Sequence record: NC_027994.1
Reading direction: 5' to 3' (one strand)
DNA from: Escherichia phage K1H
DNA length: 41,632 nt
Shown here in pieces: positions 20,181 to 28,832 of the stretch; the stretch's first letter is position 1, and each line of letters starts with the position of its first letter. A program made the translations under genes and the position numbers. The notes below the pieces were generated by a model that saw only the letters and a list, made by a program, of their open reading frames with translations, did not search any database and was not told the DNA's origin.

Positions 20181-23135
20181 ATGTCAAGCGGATGCGGTGA
20201 CGTTTTAAGCCTGGCGGATTTACAAACCGCCAAGAAACATCAGATTTTCGAGGCCGAGGTTATCACTGGCAAATCCGGCGGTGTCGCCGGTGGTGCCGAT
20301 ATTGATTACGCGACAAATCAGGTTACTGGACAGACCCAGAAGACGTTACCTGCCGTGTTGCGTGATGCTGGTTTTAAACTGGCAGATTTTGATTTCACGT
20401 CAGGCGGTACACTATCCGCTAACGACCGAAACACCGCAGTTTTGTGGCCGTCGTCCTCTGGCGGTGACGGGGATTGGTACTATTGGTTGGGCGCTCTGCC
20501 AAAAACTATCCCGGCGTCATCTTCTCCGCAGTCTACAGGAGGCGTGTCCGAAGGGGCATGGCAACGCGCCGGGTCGGTCGTACTGAGGCAGCAAATATCT
20601 AATGCGAACGGCGCAATTCTGTACCCAGATTTACATGTGGCGCGATGGAAGGACGAATACGACCCGCGCGCATGGGGCGCCGTGGGCGACGGCGTAACTG
20701 ATGATACCCAATCTATTTTTAATGTATTAGCCGCTTCACCCAACAATTGGATTATAGACGGCAGGGGCTTGACTTATAAAGTTTCCCAATTACCCGACAT
20801 TAGTAAATTTAAGAATGCTGCATTCGTTTACGAGCGCGTAGCCGGGCAACCGCTTACTTATGTAGCTGATGGCTTCTTTAACAGCTCACTAACTAAGGTG
20901 ACGGATACCCCGTTCTACAACGCATGGACGCAGGATAAAACTTTCGTCTACGACAATGTTATTTACGCTCCGTTTATGGCAGGCGAACGACATGGCGTTC
21001 AAAACTTACATGTAGCTTGGGTTCGCTCTGGTGACGACGGGCAGACTTGGTCAATGCCTGAGTGGTTGACCCCAATCCATGCTGACTATAATGCTAGTGT
21101 TTCCGCGGACAGAGTTAACTACCACTGCATGAGCATGGGTACGTGCGGCAACCGATTATATGCAGTTATAGAAACCCGCTACTTATCTAATATGCGGATG
21201 AAGAAGGCAGAACTTTGGTCACGCCCAATGCCGTATTTTAGACACCCAACCGGCGGAATAGCTATTAGTTCTGGCTCCACTACTGCTACCATTGTCATAG
21301 AAAATCATGGCCTAAAAGCAGGAGATGCGGTTAACTTCTCTAATACATCGGCAACTGGCGTATCGGGTAATATGACGGTTGCGTCTATAATTAACCGAAA
21401 TACGTTCACTGTTACGCTCTCAAGCCCGGCGAGTTCCACCATAAACAATGCGGGTGTTACCTGGAACTTCGCAACGCGATTCTGGGACAGCCCGTGGGAA
21501 ATTACCGAATTGCCTGGGGTAGCATACTCCGCTAACGCTGATTTGTGTGTCACGGAGACACATAGTTTTGCGGTTATAGATGATGTTAACTACACTATCG
21601 CTGTCGGCTATCACAACGGCGATGTGCCCCCTAGGCGTCTCGGTGTCTTGTATTTTAGTAACGTGTATGACAATCCTGGCGTATTCGTTCGTCGCACTGT
21701 CGCTCAGGCATACGCTGATAACGCTTCTGAGCCGTGCGTGAAAAGTTATGACGGTGTACTCTACCTTACCACACGCGGCACATTACCTACTTCCCCTGGC
21801 TCTACACTGGCGATGAGCACCGATTCTGGGCAAAACTGGAGCTACTTGCGATTTCCGAACAATGTACATCACTCCAATCTTCCGTTCGCTAAAGTAGGTG
21901 ACTATCTCTACATCTTTGGTACAGAACGTGCCTTTGGCGAGTGGGAAGGGGGCGAGCCGGACAGCCGCTATGAAGGCTCGTATCCAAGGACCTTTATGTG
22001 CAAAGTTAATGTGTCGTCCTGGCCTCCATCTTTAGATGATGTTCAGTGGTTTAATATTACCGACCAAATATACCAGGGTCATATCGTTAACACTGCTGTC
22101 GGCGTCGGCTCGGTCTGTGTTAAAGATGGCTGGTTGTACTATATCTTTGGTGGGGAAGACTTCTTCTCTCCCTGGAGCATAGGGGATAACAGTGCGAAGT
22201 TATGGTACAAACATGATGGACATCCTGCTGACTTATATAGCTACCGGATAAAGATTGAAGACCACCCGTATGTATCCCGTGATTTCAAATACGGAGCAAC
22301 TCCTAACCGTACACTACCTGTCGCCATGGGGGTAGATGGTGTACGTCATGTAGGGGCACCTTTAACATTTGATAATGATGTAAGCGTGTACTCCCTGCAT
22401 GTAACGGGGCTGGAATACGATGGTACACAACAGTCCGCCGTGCGTGCACAGTTTGATGGTGATTACGGGCTGATTTCAAAAACAGTCCCCACTAAAACCC
22501 CATCGGGTCAAAGACTGATAGTTAGCGGTGGTGATGGTGCATCCAGTTCCGATGGTGCGTTGCTGCAACTGTACGGGGCAAACCATGCAATGCCTAACAG
22601 GGCTATTATGTATGCGTCAGGAGGCTTCTACTCATACAACAATTTCCTTCCTTACTTAGACTCGCAAGTGTCTTTAGGTTCGGCAGGTAATAGGTGGACT
22701 ACGGTGTACGCGACCACCGGTACGATAAACACGTCTGATGGTACACTTAAGACGAATAAAGAGGAAATTGAGGGACAACTCCTTACCGCATGGGAAGATA
22801 TACATGTAATATCTTTTAAGTGGCTTGAAAGCCTAGCAATCAAGGGTGACACTGCAAGGATACACTTCGGTGTGATAGCCCAAGATGTGCGAGACATCTT
22901 GGTCAACCATGGGCTTATGGAGAAAGATTCTACCGATTGTAAATATGCTTTCTTGTGCTACGACCCAATTGAAGCTGCGTATGATATTGATGAAGATGGC
23001 CAGACTGTACAAGTATCCCCTCCCGGCGGCAGATGGGGGGTTAGGGCGGACCAGATGTTCTTCATAGAGATTGCCTATCAGCGTAAGAAGATGCGCGAGT
23101 TCGAGAAGAGGCTGGCAGCACTAGAAGATAAATAA
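20181..23135 (+). CDS. Tailspike / receptor-binding depolymerase with C-terminal intramolecular chaperone domain
   Basis: 984 aa; GAVGDGVTDDT motif (pectate-lyase-like beta-helix signature), two Asp-box-like motifs (SGDDGQTW, STDSGQNW), C-terminal region resembling self-cleaving chaperone domains of tail fibers/endosialidases. Confidence 0.65.
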   Translation: MSSGCGDVLSLADLQTAKKHQIFEAEVITGKSGGVAGGADIDYATNQVTGQTQKTLPAVLRDAGFKLADFDFTSGGTLSANDRNTAVLWPSSSGGDGDWYYWLGALPKTIPASSSPQSTGGVSEGAWQRAGSVVLRQQISNANGAILYPDLHVARWKDEYDPRAWGAVGDGVTDDTQSIFNVLAASPNNWIIDGRGLTYKVSQLPDISKFKNAAFVYERVAGQPLTYVADGFFNSSLTKVTDTPFYNAWTQDKTFVYDNVIYAPFMAGERHGVQNLHVAWVRSGDDGQTWSMPEWLTPIHADYNASVSADRVNYHCMSMGTCGNRLYAVIETRYLSNMRMKKAELWSRPMPYFRHPTGGIAISSGSTTATIVIENHGLKAGDAVNFSNTSATGVSGNMTVASIINRNTFTVTLSSPASSTINNAGVTWNFATRFWDSPWEITELPGVAYSANADLCVTETHSFAVIDDVNYTIAVGYHNGDVPPRRLGVLYFSNVYDNPGVFVRRTVAQAYADNASEPCVKSYDGVLYLTTRGTLPTSPGSTLAMSTDSGQNWSYLRFPNNVHHSNLPFAKVGDYLYIFGTERAFGEWEGGEPDSRYEGSYPRTFMCKVNVSSWPPSLDDVQWFNITDQIYQGHIVNTAVGVGSVCVKDGWLYYIFGGEDFFSPWSIGDNSAKLWYKHDGHPADLYSYRIKIEDHPYVSRDFKYGATPNRTLPVAMGVDGVRHVGAPLTFDNDVSVYSLHVTGLEYDGTQQSAVRAQFDGDYGLISKTVPTKTPSGQRLIVSGGDGASSSDGALLQLYGANHAMPNRAIMYASGGFYSYNNFLPYLDSQVSLGSAGNRWTTVYATTGTINTSDGTLKTNKEEIEGQLLTAWEDIHVISFKWLESLAIKGDTARIHFGVIAQDVRDILVNHGLMEKDSTDCKYAFLCYDPIEAAYDIDEDGQTVQVSPPGGRWGVRADQMFFIEIAYQRKKMREFEKRLAALEDK

Positions 23136-23367: not shown

Positions 23368-23549
23368 TTCTTACCTTCGCTTTTCTTGAAACTGCGCTTT
23401 ATATCCGGCAGCGTGTAGCACCGTGATTTTTCGTATTTACCGTCCGAGCTTACCAAAACAAAGCTGTTGCCGTCTTTTGATATGTACTCGATGGCGAAAA
23501 TATTAAATGAATGTACGCTGTATATTTCATCGCCAACATTAAGTTTCAT
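23364..23549 (-). CDS. Hypothetical protein
   Basis: 61 aa, overlaps neighbours by 4 nt. Confidence 0.45.
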   Translation of the reverse strand: MKLNVGDEIYSVHSFNIFAIEYISKDGNSFVLVSSDGKYEKSRCYTLPDIKRSFKKSEGKK

Positions 23550-24979
23550 TTCTTACCTCGTCTCTTCATGTAATTAAGCAACTCTTCCTGTACAGATTTC
23601 TTCTCGTCGGTTCGCGCGGCAACAACTTCGTCCAGCGTGTCTTTAGCAACGATGTGGTACAGGAACACCGGCCTCTCGTGTCCTGCCTGTTTCTGGCGGA
23701 CCGGGCCTATTCGCTCGACAACCTGCAAATAGTGTTCAAGATTCCAGCCTTGCGAGATGAACGCCAGATGGTGTCCGCCGTCCTGTAAATTCAAACCATG
23801 ACCGGCTGACGCAGGGTGGACGCACAAAATCTCGATTTCGCCGCGGTTCCATGCTTCCATCTGCTTATTACCCTTAGCACCTTTCGCGAATGCCTGCGCC
23901 TGCGGGAAACGTTTCAGGATACGCTCCAGTTCGTGCTTGAACTGATAGGCTACCAGTAGCGGAGCACCCTGTAACTCCTCAACAATTGACTCCAGCGCAT
24001 CCAGTTTCGTGTCGTGCACTTTCTCCCAGTCTTTGGTTGCTTCTCCGTCTGGCCCTGATACATACACAGCACCAGAAGCAATCTGCAAACACTTTGACGT
24101 CTTTGCCGCGGCGTTAGCCGCTTCAACTTCTCCGCTTTCCAGTTCCGCGAATAACTTTTCCTCCATATCGATGTACGCCTGACGCGCCTTCTTCGGCAGG
24201 TCGATTTCAACCGGTACAATAATCGGCGCTTCGCAACCAAACCACTCGGCGGCGTCAATCGTGAGACTAATGTCTTTCATCTTCTGATGAATCTCATTAT
24301 CCGCACCCGGTCGTGCGTGATACTCCCGCGCCATCGCGGATTTCCCTTTCTGTACCGAGTTAAACCAGCGGTCTGTGAATGCCGTGTACGAAGAACCAAG
24401 GCAACCAAGGCGCTCGCCAGCGTCGATAAACCAGTTCTGCCCCCACAAGTCCTTGAGGCCGTTCGGCGACGGTGTGCCTGTCAGGTTAATGAAACGCTTA
24501 ACCTTTCCGAACGCCACTTTGCTTAGCGCCTTAGCCCGTTTGCTTCCTCCAGAACGGCTACGGAAAGATTTCAGCTTCGTGCTCTCATCAGCAACGATAA
24601 CCGTAAAAGGCCAGTCGTCTTTGCCGTAGTAGTCAATCAGCCACTCGATAACTTCGTAGTTTGTGCACACCACGTTAGCATCTGACTCCAGCGCCGCGAT
24701 ACGGCGCTTCTCTGAACCGGTTGCGTCTACGACACTCAGACAGGGGAAGTTCCAACGTGCCTGTTCCGCGGGCCACGTACCTGACGCAACACGTAAAGGA
24801 GCCAGAATTAACACTCGGTCGTCGTCATTAAGTTGCCCATTACGGAACAGCCGATTGAGAACCCACAACGTTGACCCCGACTTACCGCTGCCCATGCTCG
24901 CCCAGATATTGCAGCGATGGTGCCGCAGCATGAACGAAGTCATGAGCTTCTGGTATTCGCGCCTTTGAAACTTACTCAT
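23546..24979 (-). CDS. SNF2/DEAD-like superfamily II helicase
   Basis: 477 aa; Walker A-like SMGSGKS, DExx box VADEST, C-terminal helicase motifs. Confidence 0.75.
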   Translation of the reverse strand: MSKFQRREYQKLMTSFMLRHHRCNIWASMGSGKSGSTLWVLNRLFRNGQLNDDDRVLILAPLRVASGTWPAEQARWNFPCLSVVDATGSEKRRIAALESDANVVCTNYEVIEWLIDYYGKDDWPFTVIVADESTKLKSFRSRSGGSKRAKALSKVAFGKVKRFINLTGTPSPNGLKDLWGQNWFIDAGERLGCLGSSYTAFTDRWFNSVQKGKSAMAREYHARPGADNEIHQKMKDISLTIDAAEWFGCEAPIIVPVEIDLPKKARQAYIDMEEKLFAELESGEVEAANAAAKTSKCLQIASGAVYVSGPDGEATKDWEKVHDTKLDALESIVEELQGAPLLVAYQFKHELERILKRFPQAQAFAKGAKGNKQMEAWNRGEIEILCVHPASAGHGLNLQDGGHHLAFISQGWNLEHYLQVVERIGPVRQKQAGHERPVFLYHIVAKDTLDEVVAARTDEKKSVQEELLNYMKRRGKK

Positions 24980-25796
24980 TTACCGCCCCCATAAACGCCT
25001 TTATAAATTCGGCGGCTACTTGCGGGACGATGGCATTGCCGTAACCGCGCAATCGTCCCACTCTGGCGGGTATCCCATTAGCCAGCGGGAATGCGCCGGG
25101 TTCAACCGGCCGGAACTTTCCATCACGGCATCCGAGCCAGTCAGCATCTGACCAGAAGCCGTGGTGCGGGTTGGTTGACTCGCTTTCAATCCCTGCTCTG
25201 TTGAGTAGTCCAGCCTGTCGAATGTTCTGTCCCTCCCGTCCGTGCGAATCACTGTCTCTCCGCTCCCTCTGAAGTCGTTCGCTGTCGGTGTAGGCCAGTT
25301 CGTGCGCGCCAAAGAAGAGTCGTTCTCTTTTGTGCGGTGCGCCGACGCTACAAGCTGGGAGTACAGCAAACCCGACGGCGTAGTCTTCTCCTTCCAGGTG
25401 AGCTTGTAAATCGCACATCCACGATTTTGCAATTGCTGCCGCAACCTGCTCCCCAAAGATGACTGGAGGGCGGCACTCGCTGATGAGGTCGAGGAAGACC
25501 GGCGCGAGGTGTCTCGGGTCGAACTGTCCGAGTTGCTTTCCCGCCGCGCTAAACGGTTGGCAAGGCGGGCTTCCCGTCCAGAGAGGCGCATCTTCCGGAA
25601 CTCCCGCAAGTCTGAGCGCGAGAGGCCAGCCGCCGATACCCGCGAAAAAATGACACTGGGTGAACCCGTCAAGGTCTTCTGGCTTAACTTCGGTAATGCT
25701 TCTTTCATCTACAACTCCAAAAGGTATGTGACCCTGTTTTATCAACTCACGCAGCCACGCGGCTGCGCCTTTATCCCATTCATTGTAATAGTTCAT
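24972..25796 (-). CDS. DNA (cytosine-5)-methyltransferase (orphan)
   Basis: 274 aa; motif I FAGIGG and motif [13 protein letters not shown] (catalytic Pro-Cys); no adjacent restriction endonuclease. Confidence 0.7.
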
Positions 25797-25984
25797 TTCG
25801 CCACCAGAACTAACTCTTTACGCCCGAACGCCGTAACGTTACCGGTTACATCTTCGATAACCAGTTTACCGTTCGACTCGACGAACACCGTATCAACGGC
25901 AACAGGTTGACGTGTCTTAACGTTGAAAATCATGTCACCCGGTACGATGTCACGTGCTGGTTTGCGGTCATATTCGTGTTTCAT
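25793..25984 (-). CDS. Hypothetical protein
   Basis: 63 aa; first gene downstream of class-2 promoter at about 26018-26046. Confidence 0.45.
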   Translation of the reverse strand: MKHEYDRKPARDIVPGDMIFNVKTRQPVAVDTVFVESNGKLVIEDVTGNVTAFGRKELVLVAK

Positions 25985-26014: not shown

Positions 26015-26314
26015 CTAACTATAATAGCTAGCTATTAGGTCGTCAACCTGTTTAAACGAACCAACGACAAAAACATTCGCACCACGTTTACGCATCCGCT
26101 CATGTTCCCGTAGCTGGTGCGGGTCTGGCTTCGTGTTCTCGTCTTTCTTAACCTCGACGAACCAGACTATGCCGCCGGGGAGAATTACCAGCAGGTCTGG
26201 GGCGCCGGAACGCCCCTCGTAGGAGAGTTTGCGAACGAGGCCGCCAAGGGCCTCGAATCGGTCTTTTGCGTATTTCTGTACGCGGCCCTCTTTAGTCATG
26301 AGCGTAGATCCCAA
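26015..26314 (-). CDS. VRR-NUC domain nuclease (putative)
   Basis: PD-(D/E)XK-like ...PDLLVILPGG...VEVKK; likely true start is the ATG 5 codons in (ATGA overlap with upstream small ORF). Confidence 0.55.
   Translation of the reverse strand: MGSTLMTKEGRVQKYAKDRFEALGGLVRKLSYEGRSGAPDLLVILPGGIVWFVEVKKDENTKPDPHQLREHERMRKRGANVFVVGSFKQVDDLIASYYS
26018..26046 (-). promoter_or_regulatory. Sigma70-like promoter, class 2 (TTGACG-N17-TATAGT) with perfect 16-bp palindrome TAATAGCTAGCTATTA
   Basis: Minus-strand -35 at about 26041-26046 and -10 at about 26018-26023; overlaps 3' end of VRR-NUC gene. Confidence 0.55.
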
Positions 26315-26447
26315 GTAATGAAAGCCCCGCCTAGAACGGCGACACCGGCAAACTTAAAGAACAGGCCATAACAGAACATCGCGGCTATTCCTGCACCGAG
26401 TAGCAGTGCGAGCATGGTTACTATCACCCGAAATACGAACATTGTCA
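26296..26447 (-). CDS. Small membrane protein (about 49 aa, two hydrophobic segments)
   Basis: ATG preceded by GGGAGGGG SD; stop overlaps VRR-NUC ATG; coordinates approximate (+/-2). Confidence 0.35.
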
Positions 26448-26651
26448 TAATACGCACCCCTCCCGTTTGGTATGCTCAATTCCGCAGCGCGGGCAGATTC
26501 GACAGTCTTCTTCATAAAACCAGTAAATTTTCATTCCAGCACCCACAGATAAATTGCGATGAACATGCCCAATATGGCAACCATCATGACGTATTGACCC
26601 TCGTGACAGTAGACACCGGCAGCAAATCCCGCCAGTACCGCGATAATCAGT

Positions 26652-28832
26652 TTACTTGGCATAACGCTTCATCTCCGCGCCTTCTGCTACAAGAGGGAAC
26701 CCCTCGGCCCACTCTGGTAATTCGCACATCAATCGTTCCAGTTCTGCGACATTGTATTCTGGTAAATCTGGTGTCTCGCAGATAATCTCATCGTGAACAT
26801 GAAGCACAATCGGGTAGCCGTTTGCTTCGACGTTCAGCAGTGCATTAGCCAACAAATCACGGCACAGCGCCTGAGTGCAGTTTTCCACGAGTTTACCGGA
26901 ATATGTGTACTGGAAGCCCCACTGACGGGTTAACTGGTTTTCGCCCTGGTACTTGATGCGCACGTTGGTAGACACCTTCCCGTCTTCGTCTGTCTCTTTC
27001 GACACGCTTAGCCCAACACCCGGATAAGACATAACGCGGCCCGACGGCAACGTCATCCGCAACCACCAACCGGCGACTTTGTTGCCGTTGTTGTCCGTTT
27101 CTACGTTGCGCGAAAACTTAACTCCCCGCGGCCCTGCGGTGAACTCTTTGCCCGGATTGCGGATAGCTGCCATAGCTGCGTCTTCAATATCCCGCCAGAA
27201 AGCTACTGTTTCCGGGTGTGACTCACGCCACATACGCTTGATAGCGTCGCAGGTACGCCACACTTTCTTATCAAGAATATAAGATGGTCGGTCATCATTT
27301 TCACCTGGACGTGGTGGTCGCTTGGCTTCCTGAATACGCGCCCACTCATATCCACGTGCGGTAGCAGCCCAGATGTGGTCGGGGAAAGTCCCGTCCATTG
27401 TTTTTGTCATATCAACAAGGTCAAGGCCGAGGTTCTTGGCGAACTGTACGAATGCGCCGACACCCCCCGCGTAGCCAAGTCCAAGTTCGCATGCCTTACC
27501 AATCTGGCGTAAGTCTTTACGTTCTTTCTTAATGTAATCCGGCTCCATGCCGAACATCTTGCCTGCGGTTACGCAGTAAATATCCAGCCCGGCACGGAAC
27601 GTATCAAGCGCGGTTTCTTCGCCAGCCAGCCACGCCAAACCGCGGCCTTCAACGTTCGAGTAGTCGGCGACGACAAACTTATGTCCGGCTTCCGGGATAA
27701 TGCAGCTGCGAACCGTAGATGCCGTTAGCTTGGCTACATCAAAACGGCGATGTGCTCGGCCCTTAAGTAATGCTGAAATACCTTTATCCAGTTCATCATC
27801 GTGATAGTACCCACGCGCCAGGTTCTGCGGCTGGAAGCCTTTACCCGCAAATCGTAACGTACGTTTAGCTCCACCATACTGGATGCAACCGCGACGGCGG
27901 TCGTCAGACGAGCGGCCTAACAGCAGCGGGTTATATTTCGTTGACGCAGTGGATGCCGCCCCGAGGCGCATTTCTATAATCGTGCGGGCGTCGTCCGGTA
28001 AATCATCGTCAGCAAGCAGGTCGTTAAGCGTTGACTTCTGCGCGTTGTGGATGCGATGCGCAGGCGCCAGTTCACGCAGAATCGGCAGGAAGTCCTTACC
28101 TGTAAGCGAGCCGCCGTATTTACGTTGGGCTTCTTCCTGTAACTGTGCCTTGTGTTTCTCCACAGCTTCAATTGCGGCTTCCGCCAGCGCAACGTCGACC
28201 TTAAACCCGCGGTCGTTAATTAACTGGTCCAGTTCCAGTACACGGTCTTCGAACTCGGAGTTACCCCAACGCGGCAACTTATGGAACACTTCACGCATCG
28301 CGGTGATGTCGCTAACGGCGTACTTGATGAACAGCGCCCACTCATCCGGGTGCGTTTCAGCAGTGTAGCGGCGAATTTTGTAGTTCTTCGGCGTCGGTTT
28401 AGAGAAACGCTGAATAAGCGCTTTGCCTCGTTTGTCTTTCGCGTTGTCTGCAGACACGCCAAGCACTTCGCACAATGCGTCGAGTGAACCCGGCAGCGCG
28501 TGACGAAACGCCCAAATCATCGTATCAATGGTGTTGCTTACGGGAATATCAAAACCCCAGCAGTGCTTCATGATGAGTCTGTCGAACATTGAGCCGTTGT
28601 GCCACACCATCTTAATACGGCTGTTTGGTTTCACCAGACGGCGTAACGCGCGGTGCAAATCACCCGGCATGTCGCTGCCGTTGGTGCAATCCCATACCTG
28701 CACAGGCTCGTCGTCAAAAGCATATGTGCAGATTAGAACTTCGGTGGTTGGATGTTCGGCGTAAGCGTAGGAGCCGACTTTCTTCAAATCGGCTTCGGAG
28801 AATGTTTCAAAGTCTAAGAACAGGTAACTCAT
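26652..28832 (-). CDS. DNA polymerase I-like (family A) with 3'-5' exonuclease domain
   Basis: 726 aa; N-terminal DFETFSE exonuclease motif; size and position in replication module. Confidence 0.85.
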   Translation of the reverse strand: MSYLFLDFETFSEADLKKVGSYAYAEHPTTEVLICTYAFDDEPVQVWDCTNGSDMPGDLHRALRRLVKPNSRIKMVWHNGSMFDRLIMKHCWGFDIPVSNTIDTMIWAFRHALPGSLDALCEVLGVSADNAKDKRGKALIQRFSKPTPKNYKIRRYTAETHPDEWALFIKYAVSDITAMREVFHKLPRWGNSEFEDRVLELDQLINDRGFKVDVALAEAAIEAVEKHKAQLQEEAQRKYGGSLTGKDFLPILRELAPAHRIHNAQKSTLNDLLADDDLPDDARTIIEMRLGAASTASTKYNPLLLGRSSDDRRRGCIQYGGAKRTLRFAGKGFQPQNLARGYYHDDELDKGISALLKGRAHRRFDVAKLTASTVRSCIIPEAGHKFVVADYSNVEGRGLAWLAGEETALDTFRAGLDIYCVTAGKMFGMEPDYIKKERKDLRQIGKACELGLGYAGGVGAFVQFAKNLGLDLVDMTKTMDGTFPDHIWAATARGYEWARIQEAKRPPRPGENDDRPSYILDKKVWRTCDAIKRMWRESHPETVAFWRDIEDAAMAAIRNPGKEFTAGPRGVKFSRNVETDNNGNKVAGWWLRMTLPSGRVMSYPGVGLSVSKETDEDGKVSTNVRIKYQGENQLTRQWGFQYTYSGKLVENCTQALCRDLLANALLNVEANGYPIVLHVHDEIICETPDLPEYNVAELERLMCELPEWAEGFPLVAEGAEMKRYAK

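Follow-up and report, generated by a model that had tools for sequence, protein, structure and literature searches.

C5-cytosine DNA methyltransferases (C5-MTases) act as monomers, with M.AquI and M.EcoHK31I as exceptions (PMC3404938). In M.EcoHK31I, the beta polypeptide is encoded entirely within the gene for alpha in another reading frame, alpha carries motifs I-VIII plus motif X, beta contains motif IX, and both polypeptides are required for activity (PMC2836561, PMC3404938). Beta partly tolerates the loss of its N-terminal residues, and Met codons further inside can act as start codons (PMC2836561). In M.AquI, alpha contains motifs I-VIII together with a portion of the variable region, and beta supplies the rest of the variable region together with motifs IX and X (PMC3404938). 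Here, we analysed a window of 41,632 nucleotides (nt) from Escherichia phage K1H (NC_027994.1) with a focus on its C5-MTase gene, open reading frame (ORF) A (alpha-like; 24972-25796, minus strand; 274 amino acids (aa), ATG start), and on a second frame, ORF B (beta-like; 25016-25708, minus strand; 230 aa), which lies entirely within A in the +1 frame. Our data suggest that this locus probably encodes a two-polypeptide C5-MTase read from two frames. The nested two-frame design as such is already known from one enzyme, M.EcoHK31I, described in 1995.

Profile comparisons confirm ORF A as a genuine C5-MTase gene, far beyond chance: it matches Pfam family PF00145 with E=4.8e-17 and 62.8 bits (cut-off 22), phrog_363 'DNA methyltransferase' with 6e-89 and M.HhaI with 2e-8. 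An original prediction, made from the DNA letters, had described a C5-MTase with FxGxGG and PCQ motifs, and these motifs as well as the catalytic residues are indeed intact. Motif I (FAGIGG, residues 51-56) pairs with FAGLGG of HhaI, motif IV (PPCQ, residues 77-80) contains the catalytic cysteine Cys79, GEQV with Glu116 is the equivalent of ENV in motif VI, and motif VIII (KRERLFF) includes Arg157 and Arg159. Motif X (GNAIVP, residues 253-258, with Asn254) is strongly conserved under A-frame selection and was assigned by pattern; the Pfam and HHalign alignments stop short of it. Against a reference sequence of M.HhaI that is 100% identical to PDB 10mh, A residues 67-162 pair with HhaI 70-168 (motifs IV-VIII) at an HHalign probability of 98.7% (E=1.6e-16), and motifs IV, VI and VIII are contained in residues 77-162 (25311-25568, minus strand). 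In tblastn searches, A is conserved over its full length (residues 1-274) with 46-82% identity in 80 viral contigs. The homologues form length classes of 261-359 aa, and their central parts are mutually unrelated.

In the native ORF A, the PF00145 alignment is limited to residues 71-168. Using HMMER and HHalign, residues 3-13 pair with HhaI 37-47 (YSNEWDKYAQE, motif II) and residues 35-65 with HhaI 2-32 (motif I). The equivalent of motifs II-III (YYNEWD...VVDERSI) in residues 1-34 (25695-25796, minus strand) is located ahead of residues 35-66 (25599-25694, minus strand), which comprise the motif I loop for S-adenosylmethionine (AdoMet) and the next helix. To rescore A against PF00145 as a permutation test, we rearranged it to the canonical order 35-66, 1-34, 67-274, and the score rose from 62.8 to 83.0 bits with an alignment contiguous over profile positions 5-164. 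The same rearrangement with a shuffled segment 1-34 gave 67.3 bits (profile 5-164), and deletion of segment 1-34 gave 62.2 bits (profile 62-165). Since un-permuting adds 20 bits and makes the Pfam alignment contiguous, the AdoMet-binding strand-helix units of A are, judged by these scores, ordered II-III-I-IV and not canonically I-II-III-IV. HhaI Glu40 has its equivalent in A Glu6, and that of HhaI Asp60 is probably Asp30. In the permuted C5-MTases M.BssHII and plant DRM2, circular permutation moves motifs IX-X or VI-X to the N-terminus with the fold kept. The K1H gene resembles these enzymes in that the conserved motif order of C5-MTases can be rearranged, and differs from them in that only the first three beta-alpha units are reordered (II-III-I-IV). 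With M.HhaI and the PF00145 family, A shares motifs I, IV, VI and VIII, the catalytic residues, a motif X assigned by pattern and, by homology, the large-domain fold. Unlike in this family, the motif II-III segment comes ahead of motif I, frame A does not encode the small domain, and the interval from motif VIII to motif X of the chain is without the variable region and motif IX. The predicted gene therefore stands, but its minus strand, the restriction of the Pfam match to residues 71-168, the permutation and the embedded ORF had been overlooked.

The embedded frame is open in all of the ~80 A homologues examined, over 222-349 codons that begin ~50-105 nt past the A start and end shortly before the A stop, compared with only 30-137 open codons for the +2 frame inside the same genes. 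Among the analysed homologues, the +1 ORF spans 76-100% of A (median 89%) in 69 of 69; in a null that shuffles synonymous codons with protein A and its codon usage kept, the mean is 133 of 312 codons. For the window gene (57% GC), this null reached at least 230 open codons in 0.025% of the trials (P=2.5e-4), and as a control, alternative frames in the flanking helicase, polymerase and tailspike genes of the window are open for no more than 125 codons. The +1 ORF is also open in Salmonella phage epsilon15, the P2-like SEN5, Rhodobacter phage RcMrWorf and a prophage remnant of enterotoxigenic Escherichia coli (ETEC) H10407. It could be argued that K1H encodes a conventional monomeric orphan C5-MTase and that the embedded ORF is an untranslated by-product of composition or codon usage. 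Long alternative-frame ORFs are fairly frequent in GC-rich homologues, as 34 of the 69 were matched by at least one of 300 synonymous shuffles, and most annotations list only A. The uniformly open frame, its coverage relative to the null mean and the P value of the window gene speak against such a by-product, and further evidence comes from the selection on the two frames.

We used codon alignments of the 69 homologues, compared pairs below 65% identity and took the least conserved codon position as the wobble of the frame under selection. Over A residues 1-105 (motifs II-III, I and IV), selection acts on A only, with a conservation of 0.28-0.5 at the third codon position (p3) versus ~0.7-0.97 at the first and second positions (p1/p2), and the aa identity of B is 0.25-0.45. 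Between motifs IV and VIII (A residues 106-142), both frames are selected, the A wobble being conserved at 0.55-0.75 over the B helix and the LTWKxxxTPSG hairpin, followed by A-frame selection at motif VIII (A residues 145-163). The low-complexity linker of A, which is variable in length (residues 165-211; 25164-25304, minus strand), is open and unselected as an A-frame protein: at A residues ~166-211, where it overlies the B cassette, only B is selected (B p3 0.32-0.34 versus p1/p2 0.43-0.58), and A aa identity between motifs VIII and X amounts to 0.10-0.14, unalignable in frame A. A conserved A-frame segment then precedes the motif IX region (A residues 212-229; 25110-25163, minus strand), with selection on A or on both frames and the A-frame wobble as the least conserved position at residues 223-228. 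Selection on B dominates at A residues 231-243 (A wobble 0.81-0.91, B wobble 0.49-0.74, B aa identity 0.84), and at A residues 245-274 only A is selected (p3 0.35-0.52 versus p1/p2 0.7-0.95), covering motif X and the C-terminal helix at residues 246-274 (24975-25061, minus strand; A-only selection). Frames A and B are both kept open end to end, selection alternates between them as a mosaic, and the unconstrained spacer of each chain overlies a constrained stretch of the other. Frame A is open through the B-only region in 36 of 36 testable homologues, compared with a median probability of only 0.23 in B-synonymous shuffles, and B is open for ~70-100 codons upstream of its first constrained residue.

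Such a mosaic brings programmed ribosomal frameshifting to mind, which would join segments of A and B into one canonical single-chain methyltransferase. We consider this hardly probable, as it requires at least two frame changes, and four according to the selection map, and as the longest run at >=0.9 nucleotide identity is ~5-6 at the transitions covered, with no conserved slippery heptamer visible. Two further features are left unexplained by frameshifting: B, which has its own Shine-Dalgarno sequence and ATG, stays open over the ~100 codons that precede its first selected segment, and A stays open across the cassettes. What speaks for it is that A up to ~residue 229, continued by the B segment and then by GYGNAIVPQ of A, yields the canonical succession of motifs IX and X; nevertheless, no natural in-frame A-B fusion was found among the longer A homologues and the 10 longest of the 150 listed B-family matches. 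The longer A homologues (66-72% query coverage) were considered as A-B fusions and proved to be A proteins in which the central cassettes differ or are longer. PF00145 was present in none of the 10 longest of 150 listed B-family matches, which we inspected for single-chain proteins and one of which is a fusion of B with Dam.

For a separate B chain, as in the two-polypeptide enzyme, the locus provides its own start signal. The start region (25706-25718, minus strand) consists of GGAG, 6 nt and ATG with an in-frame TAG immediately before, and the start codon is located 88 nt downstream of the A start. Two sites are conserved for the first ATG of B, at A residues 30 and 36, and 41 of the 69 homologues use one of them; 40 of the 69 have a Shine-Dalgarno match of at least 4 nt before the B ATG. 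In most homologues with conserved ATG sites this is GGAG or AGGAG, 6-8 nt upstream, frequently formed by an AGG-AGC Arg-Ser codon pair of frame A. From this signal and the selection on two frames, we infer that B is translated. The by-product explanation is disfavoured by the frame-specific wobble pattern together with the conserved starts and is, in our view, very unlikely: the B-frame wobble is the least conserved position over the cassettes and A residues 231-243, inexplicable for an untranslated frame, start codons with Shine-Dalgarno sequences are conserved, and B motifs are 84% identical across the family.

ORF B matches phrog_1008 (1.4e-55) and no Pfam family, and includes the following parts, all on the minus strand. 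Residues 1-74 (25487-25708) form a Ser/Arg-rich N-terminal region that is open and unconstrained in sequence, with the second codon position of B, which is the A wobble, as the least conserved. Residues 75-137 (25298-25486) comprise a conserved helix and beta-hairpin (...LVASAHRT) that is dual-coded with A motifs VI-VIII. A variable part with a single 'WPTP' cassette follows at residues 137-175 (25184-25300), and a motif-IX-like segment under B-dominant selection with 84% aa identity across the family at residues 202-217 (25058-25105). This segment ends 8 codons before motif X of frame A, and the C-terminus of B shows the pattern LxPxxxxxxMGYPxx[W/Y], like motif IX of HhaI. In an AlphaFold2 (AF2) model, residues 1-70 are without secondary structure, with a block-mean predicted local distance difference test (pLDDT) of 43-52 for residues 11-70, and only residues 71-130 reach block means of ~66-92; the helix at 76-95 and the hairpin at 101-123 (pLDDT 71-92) are the only confident part.

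A side observation concerns protein P0194 (479 aa, 73% identical to A), which has an insertion of ~165 aa between FRPVE and FPL..G.PARVGRL. The insertion falls within the nucleotides encoding the motif-IX-like segment of B and would disrupt B. It could be a mobile insertion or an intein-like element.

The single WPTP cassette, which is under B-only selection, is a candidate target-recognition module. In the B family, the central part consists of repeated units of 30-45 aa around GWPTPxAxD, the number of which differs between proteins, and other family members contain three to nine WPTP copies in the sequences that were read. Within Kagunavirus, five cassette types (M1-M5) occur in differing combinations between highly similar A and B flanks: M1 in the window and in K1G, M4 in Bas70 and NTEC3, M2+M1 in UViG_2974615685, M1+M3 in phiEc3, M2+M1+M3 in ST20 and M5+M1 in 536P11. 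Phage fTaEco01 (L092) carries a hybrid of a Bas70-type head (NWPTPCAN) and a window-type tail, joined at the WPTP core, and the conserved core seems to be a recombination joint between cassettes. It is this cassette variation that leads to the length classes of the A homologues. The multispecific C5-MTases of the Bacillus phages SPR, phi3T, rho11s and SPbeta, studied in the Trautner laboratory, are orphan, single-polypeptide enzymes read from one frame, and their variable region consists of tandem exchangeable modules of ~40-50 aa. The WPTP cassettes (30-45 aa) appear to be gained, lost and exchanged in a similar way, with a presumed role in specificity, and differ in that they are located in an alternative frame and on a separate polypeptide. 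We propose this recognition role because shuffling is the expected behaviour of specificity modules. The original prediction considered the target-recognition domain not inferable from sequence; its probable location is in ORF B, in the form of the WPTP modules.

Taken together, frame A would provide the AdoMet-binding catalytic large domain with motifs II-III, I, IV, VI and VIII, a floppy linker and motif X, and frame B, from its own GGAG-ATG, would add an unconstrained Ser/Arg-rich tail, the helix-hairpin, one WPTP recognition cassette and motif IX. B would thereby supply the parts that a single-chain enzyme holds in its small DNA-recognition domain, and the two chains may assemble on the model of M.EcoHK31I alpha/beta. 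That the A protein alone is the whole enzyme is unlikely, because the region from motif VIII to X is unselected in A and the variable region and the motif-IX-like segment are read in the +1 frame.

Several points weigh against a two-polypeptide enzyme. The assignment of motif IX in B is statistically weak: the sole HHalign match of the B family to the HhaI family, at HhaI 274-292 (LHPRECARVMGYPDSYKVH, motif IX), is not significant (P=0.14). Using HMMER, the B profile scores HhaI with -1.7 bits, which is within the range of shuffles (up to 2.3), and it matches nothing among PDB sequences at E<=10. When the B segment is grafted into A, the Pfam score rises by only 6.7 bits, and Pfam scans of short C-terminal fragments in either frame and of chimeras gave no alignment of motifs IX/X. 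The AF2 model of B is poor overall (mean pLDDT 59.7 with an alignment of 58 sequences), a Foldseek search of the PDB with this model found no match at E<=0.001, and an A-B-A chimera modelled as a single sequence reached a pLDDT of 31.5. Furthermore, both translation of B and binding between A and B are deduced from sequence patterns, and the A segment 212-229 between two B-selected stretches implies an unusually interwoven complex. Finally, the target-recognition domain of M.EcoHK31I is reported in alpha, whereas the variable region of K1H is selected in the embedded frame B only.

These points leave room for a translated and selected B that is independent of methylation, namely an overprinted accessory protein with a DNA-binding, regulatory or anti-defence function, and A alone as the methyltransferase. 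Indeed, neither solved structures nor Pfam families show a significant resemblance to B, unrelated functions are common among overprinted genes of viruses, and A keeps a segment of its own at the position of motif IX (DGKFRPVEP), which HHalign pairs weakly with NGKTRKLHP of HhaI (E=0.34). However, A has no selected recognition region in its own frame, and the B-selected stretches correspond in position to the variable region and motif IX of a single-chain C5-MTase, right before motif X. Besides, B accompanies A in every homologue examined, the cassette shuffling fits specificity modules, and M.EcoHK31I provides a precedent. We therefore regard an accessory B as unlikely and favour the two-polypeptide C5-MTase.

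Compared by its published description, M.EcoHK31I (E. coli HK31, YGGCCR) resembles the K1H locus in that a smaller ORF is nested in a larger one in another frame and that the large chain carries motifs I-VIII and X. According to the 1995 paper, its alpha and beta chains reportedly have 309 and 176 aa, compared to 274 and 230 aa in K1H. The spacing of Met17 and Met26 (PMC2836561) combined with this beta length was found in no B. M.EcoHK31I belongs to a restriction-modification pair, whereas the K1H gene stands as an orphan among the replication genes of a phage. A permuted N-terminal motif order, as in ORF A, is not reported for M.EcoHK31I, and the variable region of K1H differs by its repeated, modular cassettes. 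M.AquI is likewise a natural two-polypeptide C5-MTase, split in the variable region (PMC3404938), but the K1H ORFs are nested, and motif X stays in the catalytic frame A, after the B stop.

Regarding the biological role, the A/B complex would methylate cytosine C5 at a short site on replicating phage DNA, and protection of this DNA from host restriction, as originally predicted, is plausible. In the BASEL study, Kagunavirus isolates including Bas70 were 'highly sensitive to RM systems', i.e. restriction-modification systems, in the test panel (PMC11990801). The annotation of Bas70 includes the same methylase gene. Since Kagunavirus is sensitive to the tested systems, any protection would be narrow and site-specific, directed only against host nucleases whose sites overlap the target. 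Rapid cassette exchange would be expected if specificity is under arms-race selection. The proposed orphan state of the gene agrees with the close relatives K1G and Bas70, in which no restriction endonuclease is annotated. It is also conceivable that the A/B enzyme installs a non-methyl modification or feeds a hypermodification pathway, as a phage C5-MTase homologue can reportedly be the first step of hypermodification in TET-associated systems. This is extremely unlikely for K1H, as no dioxygenase, glycosyltransferase or similar gene is annotated in related genomes and the AdoMet-binding and catalytic residues of A are canonical.

Beyond K1H, the B profile found 20,144 matches at E<=1e-3 and 7,827 at E<=1e-30 among 1.84 billion cluster representatives, and 595 homologues of the C-terminal half of B are present in a 90%-clustered protein set. 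The 120 listed B homologues are all 83-254 aa long, nearly all ~200-250 aa, and lack a Pfam domain. By tblastn, B-like sequence occurs in 246 phage records from many host genera, and most of the rows listed place it beneath an annotated cytosine methylase. We consider it an even call whether a very large, for the most part unannotated phage and prophage family of two-polypeptide C5-MTases is encoded in overlapping frames in an A-B-A-B-A pattern, in which disordered spacers of one chain overlap ordered segments of the other, with shuffled WPTP cassettes that alter or multiply specificity and with M.EcoHK31I, long regarded as a curiosity, as a domesticated example of a common phage design or a convergent copy of it. 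The family spans phages of Enterobacteria, Burkholderia, Xanthomonas, Rhodobacter, Vibrio and cyanobacteria. If true, the nested two-frame design would be a widespread phage solution with thousands of sequence clusters. Few overlapping gene pairs on the same strand in phages would then be longer or more broadly conserved, and the pair would be a clean natural example of two frames that complement each other in order and disorder. The design would show where to seek the specificity determinants of these orphan methylases, and could offer a compact scaffold, modular and already split in nature, for engineering targeted cytosine methylation, for which M.EcoHK31I is already used. In the literature, of which our coverage is incomplete, we came across no account of the conservation throughout the family, the mosaic of selection, the alternative-frame cassettes or the N-terminal permutation.

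Reading the locus in two frames also accounts for miscalls by annotation pipelines. The embedded ORF is listed unexplained in some GenBank records and in PHROGs, and in GenBank K1G and fTaEco01 it is annotated as 'Mte8-like protein' or 'putative methyltransferase'; literature searches for the name 'Mte8' and for this phage architecture gave no functional description. Pipelines handle the locus inconsistently and report only A, only B or two 'partial pseudogenes'. In phage NTEC3 (L089, 446-1108), only the embedded frame B is annotated, as 'methyltransferase', and in phage ST20 (L090, 710-1363), a part of B is annotated as hypothetical and A is omitted; we checked both ORFs in the two phages and found them intact. 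A prophage copy in E. coli Ec1117 (L093, 2863-4032) was split by the Prokaryotic Genome Annotation Pipeline (PGAP) into two 'incomplete' pseudogene fragments.

B is sometimes fused or adjacent to a second methylase. The B-family protein P0327 (497 aa) continues in frame into a complete Dam-type N6-adenine methyltransferase (PF05869, E=4.4e-53), and in another locus (L003, 2445-2936) a Dam-like ORF begins 10 nt before the B stop. On the chromosome of ETEC H10407 (L094, 34-6331), a decaying prophage-like element contains a module of polymerase, VRR-NUC, C5-MTase and SNF2 genes, in which the polymerase gene carries a frameshift and the SNF2 gene is interrupted by a stop. Here, the A (337 aa) and B (294 aa) ORFs are both intact, with about three WPTP-like cassettes, which hints at retention by the host. 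A convergent 309-aa hypothetical gene beside this copy was considered as a restriction endonuclease and discarded, as it gave only a weak CII-like match.

The K1H region shares 96-98% identity with the Escherichia phages K1G, K1ind2/3 and MirsaeidiM_Esher4 (Kagunavirus, Guernseyvirinae). The methylase gene and the flanking replication genes are all on the minus strand, and the gene is flanked by an SNF2-type helicase (23546-24979) on one side and, upstream, by a family-A DNA polymerase (26652-28832), in agreement with the predicted replication operon. Directly upstream, a 63-aa ORF of unassigned function (25793-25984, minus strand; phrog_4879, E=1.3e-46) is kept beside the methylase in relatives within Kagunavirus. 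The overlap of its TGA with the start codon of the methylase (ATGA) suggests that the two are translationally coupled. A 99-aa ORF further upstream is annotated as VRR-NUC nuclease or Holliday junction resolvase in relatives and is without a Pfam match in K1H. Between this VRR-NUC-like gene and the DNA polymerase, still within the replication module, two small, very hydrophobic ORFs of 53 aa (26296-26457, minus strand) and 43 aa (26531-26662, minus strand) resemble single-pass membrane peptides, and neither matches a Pfam family. On the plus strand, a 984-aa tail protein (20181-23135) represents a K1-capsule endosialidase tailspike with the domains End_N_terminal, End_beta_propel (E=1.9e-223), End_beta_barrel, End_tail_spike and the intramolecular chaperone Peptidase_S74. 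Based on this tailspike, K1H is predicted to be K1-specific, like K1G.

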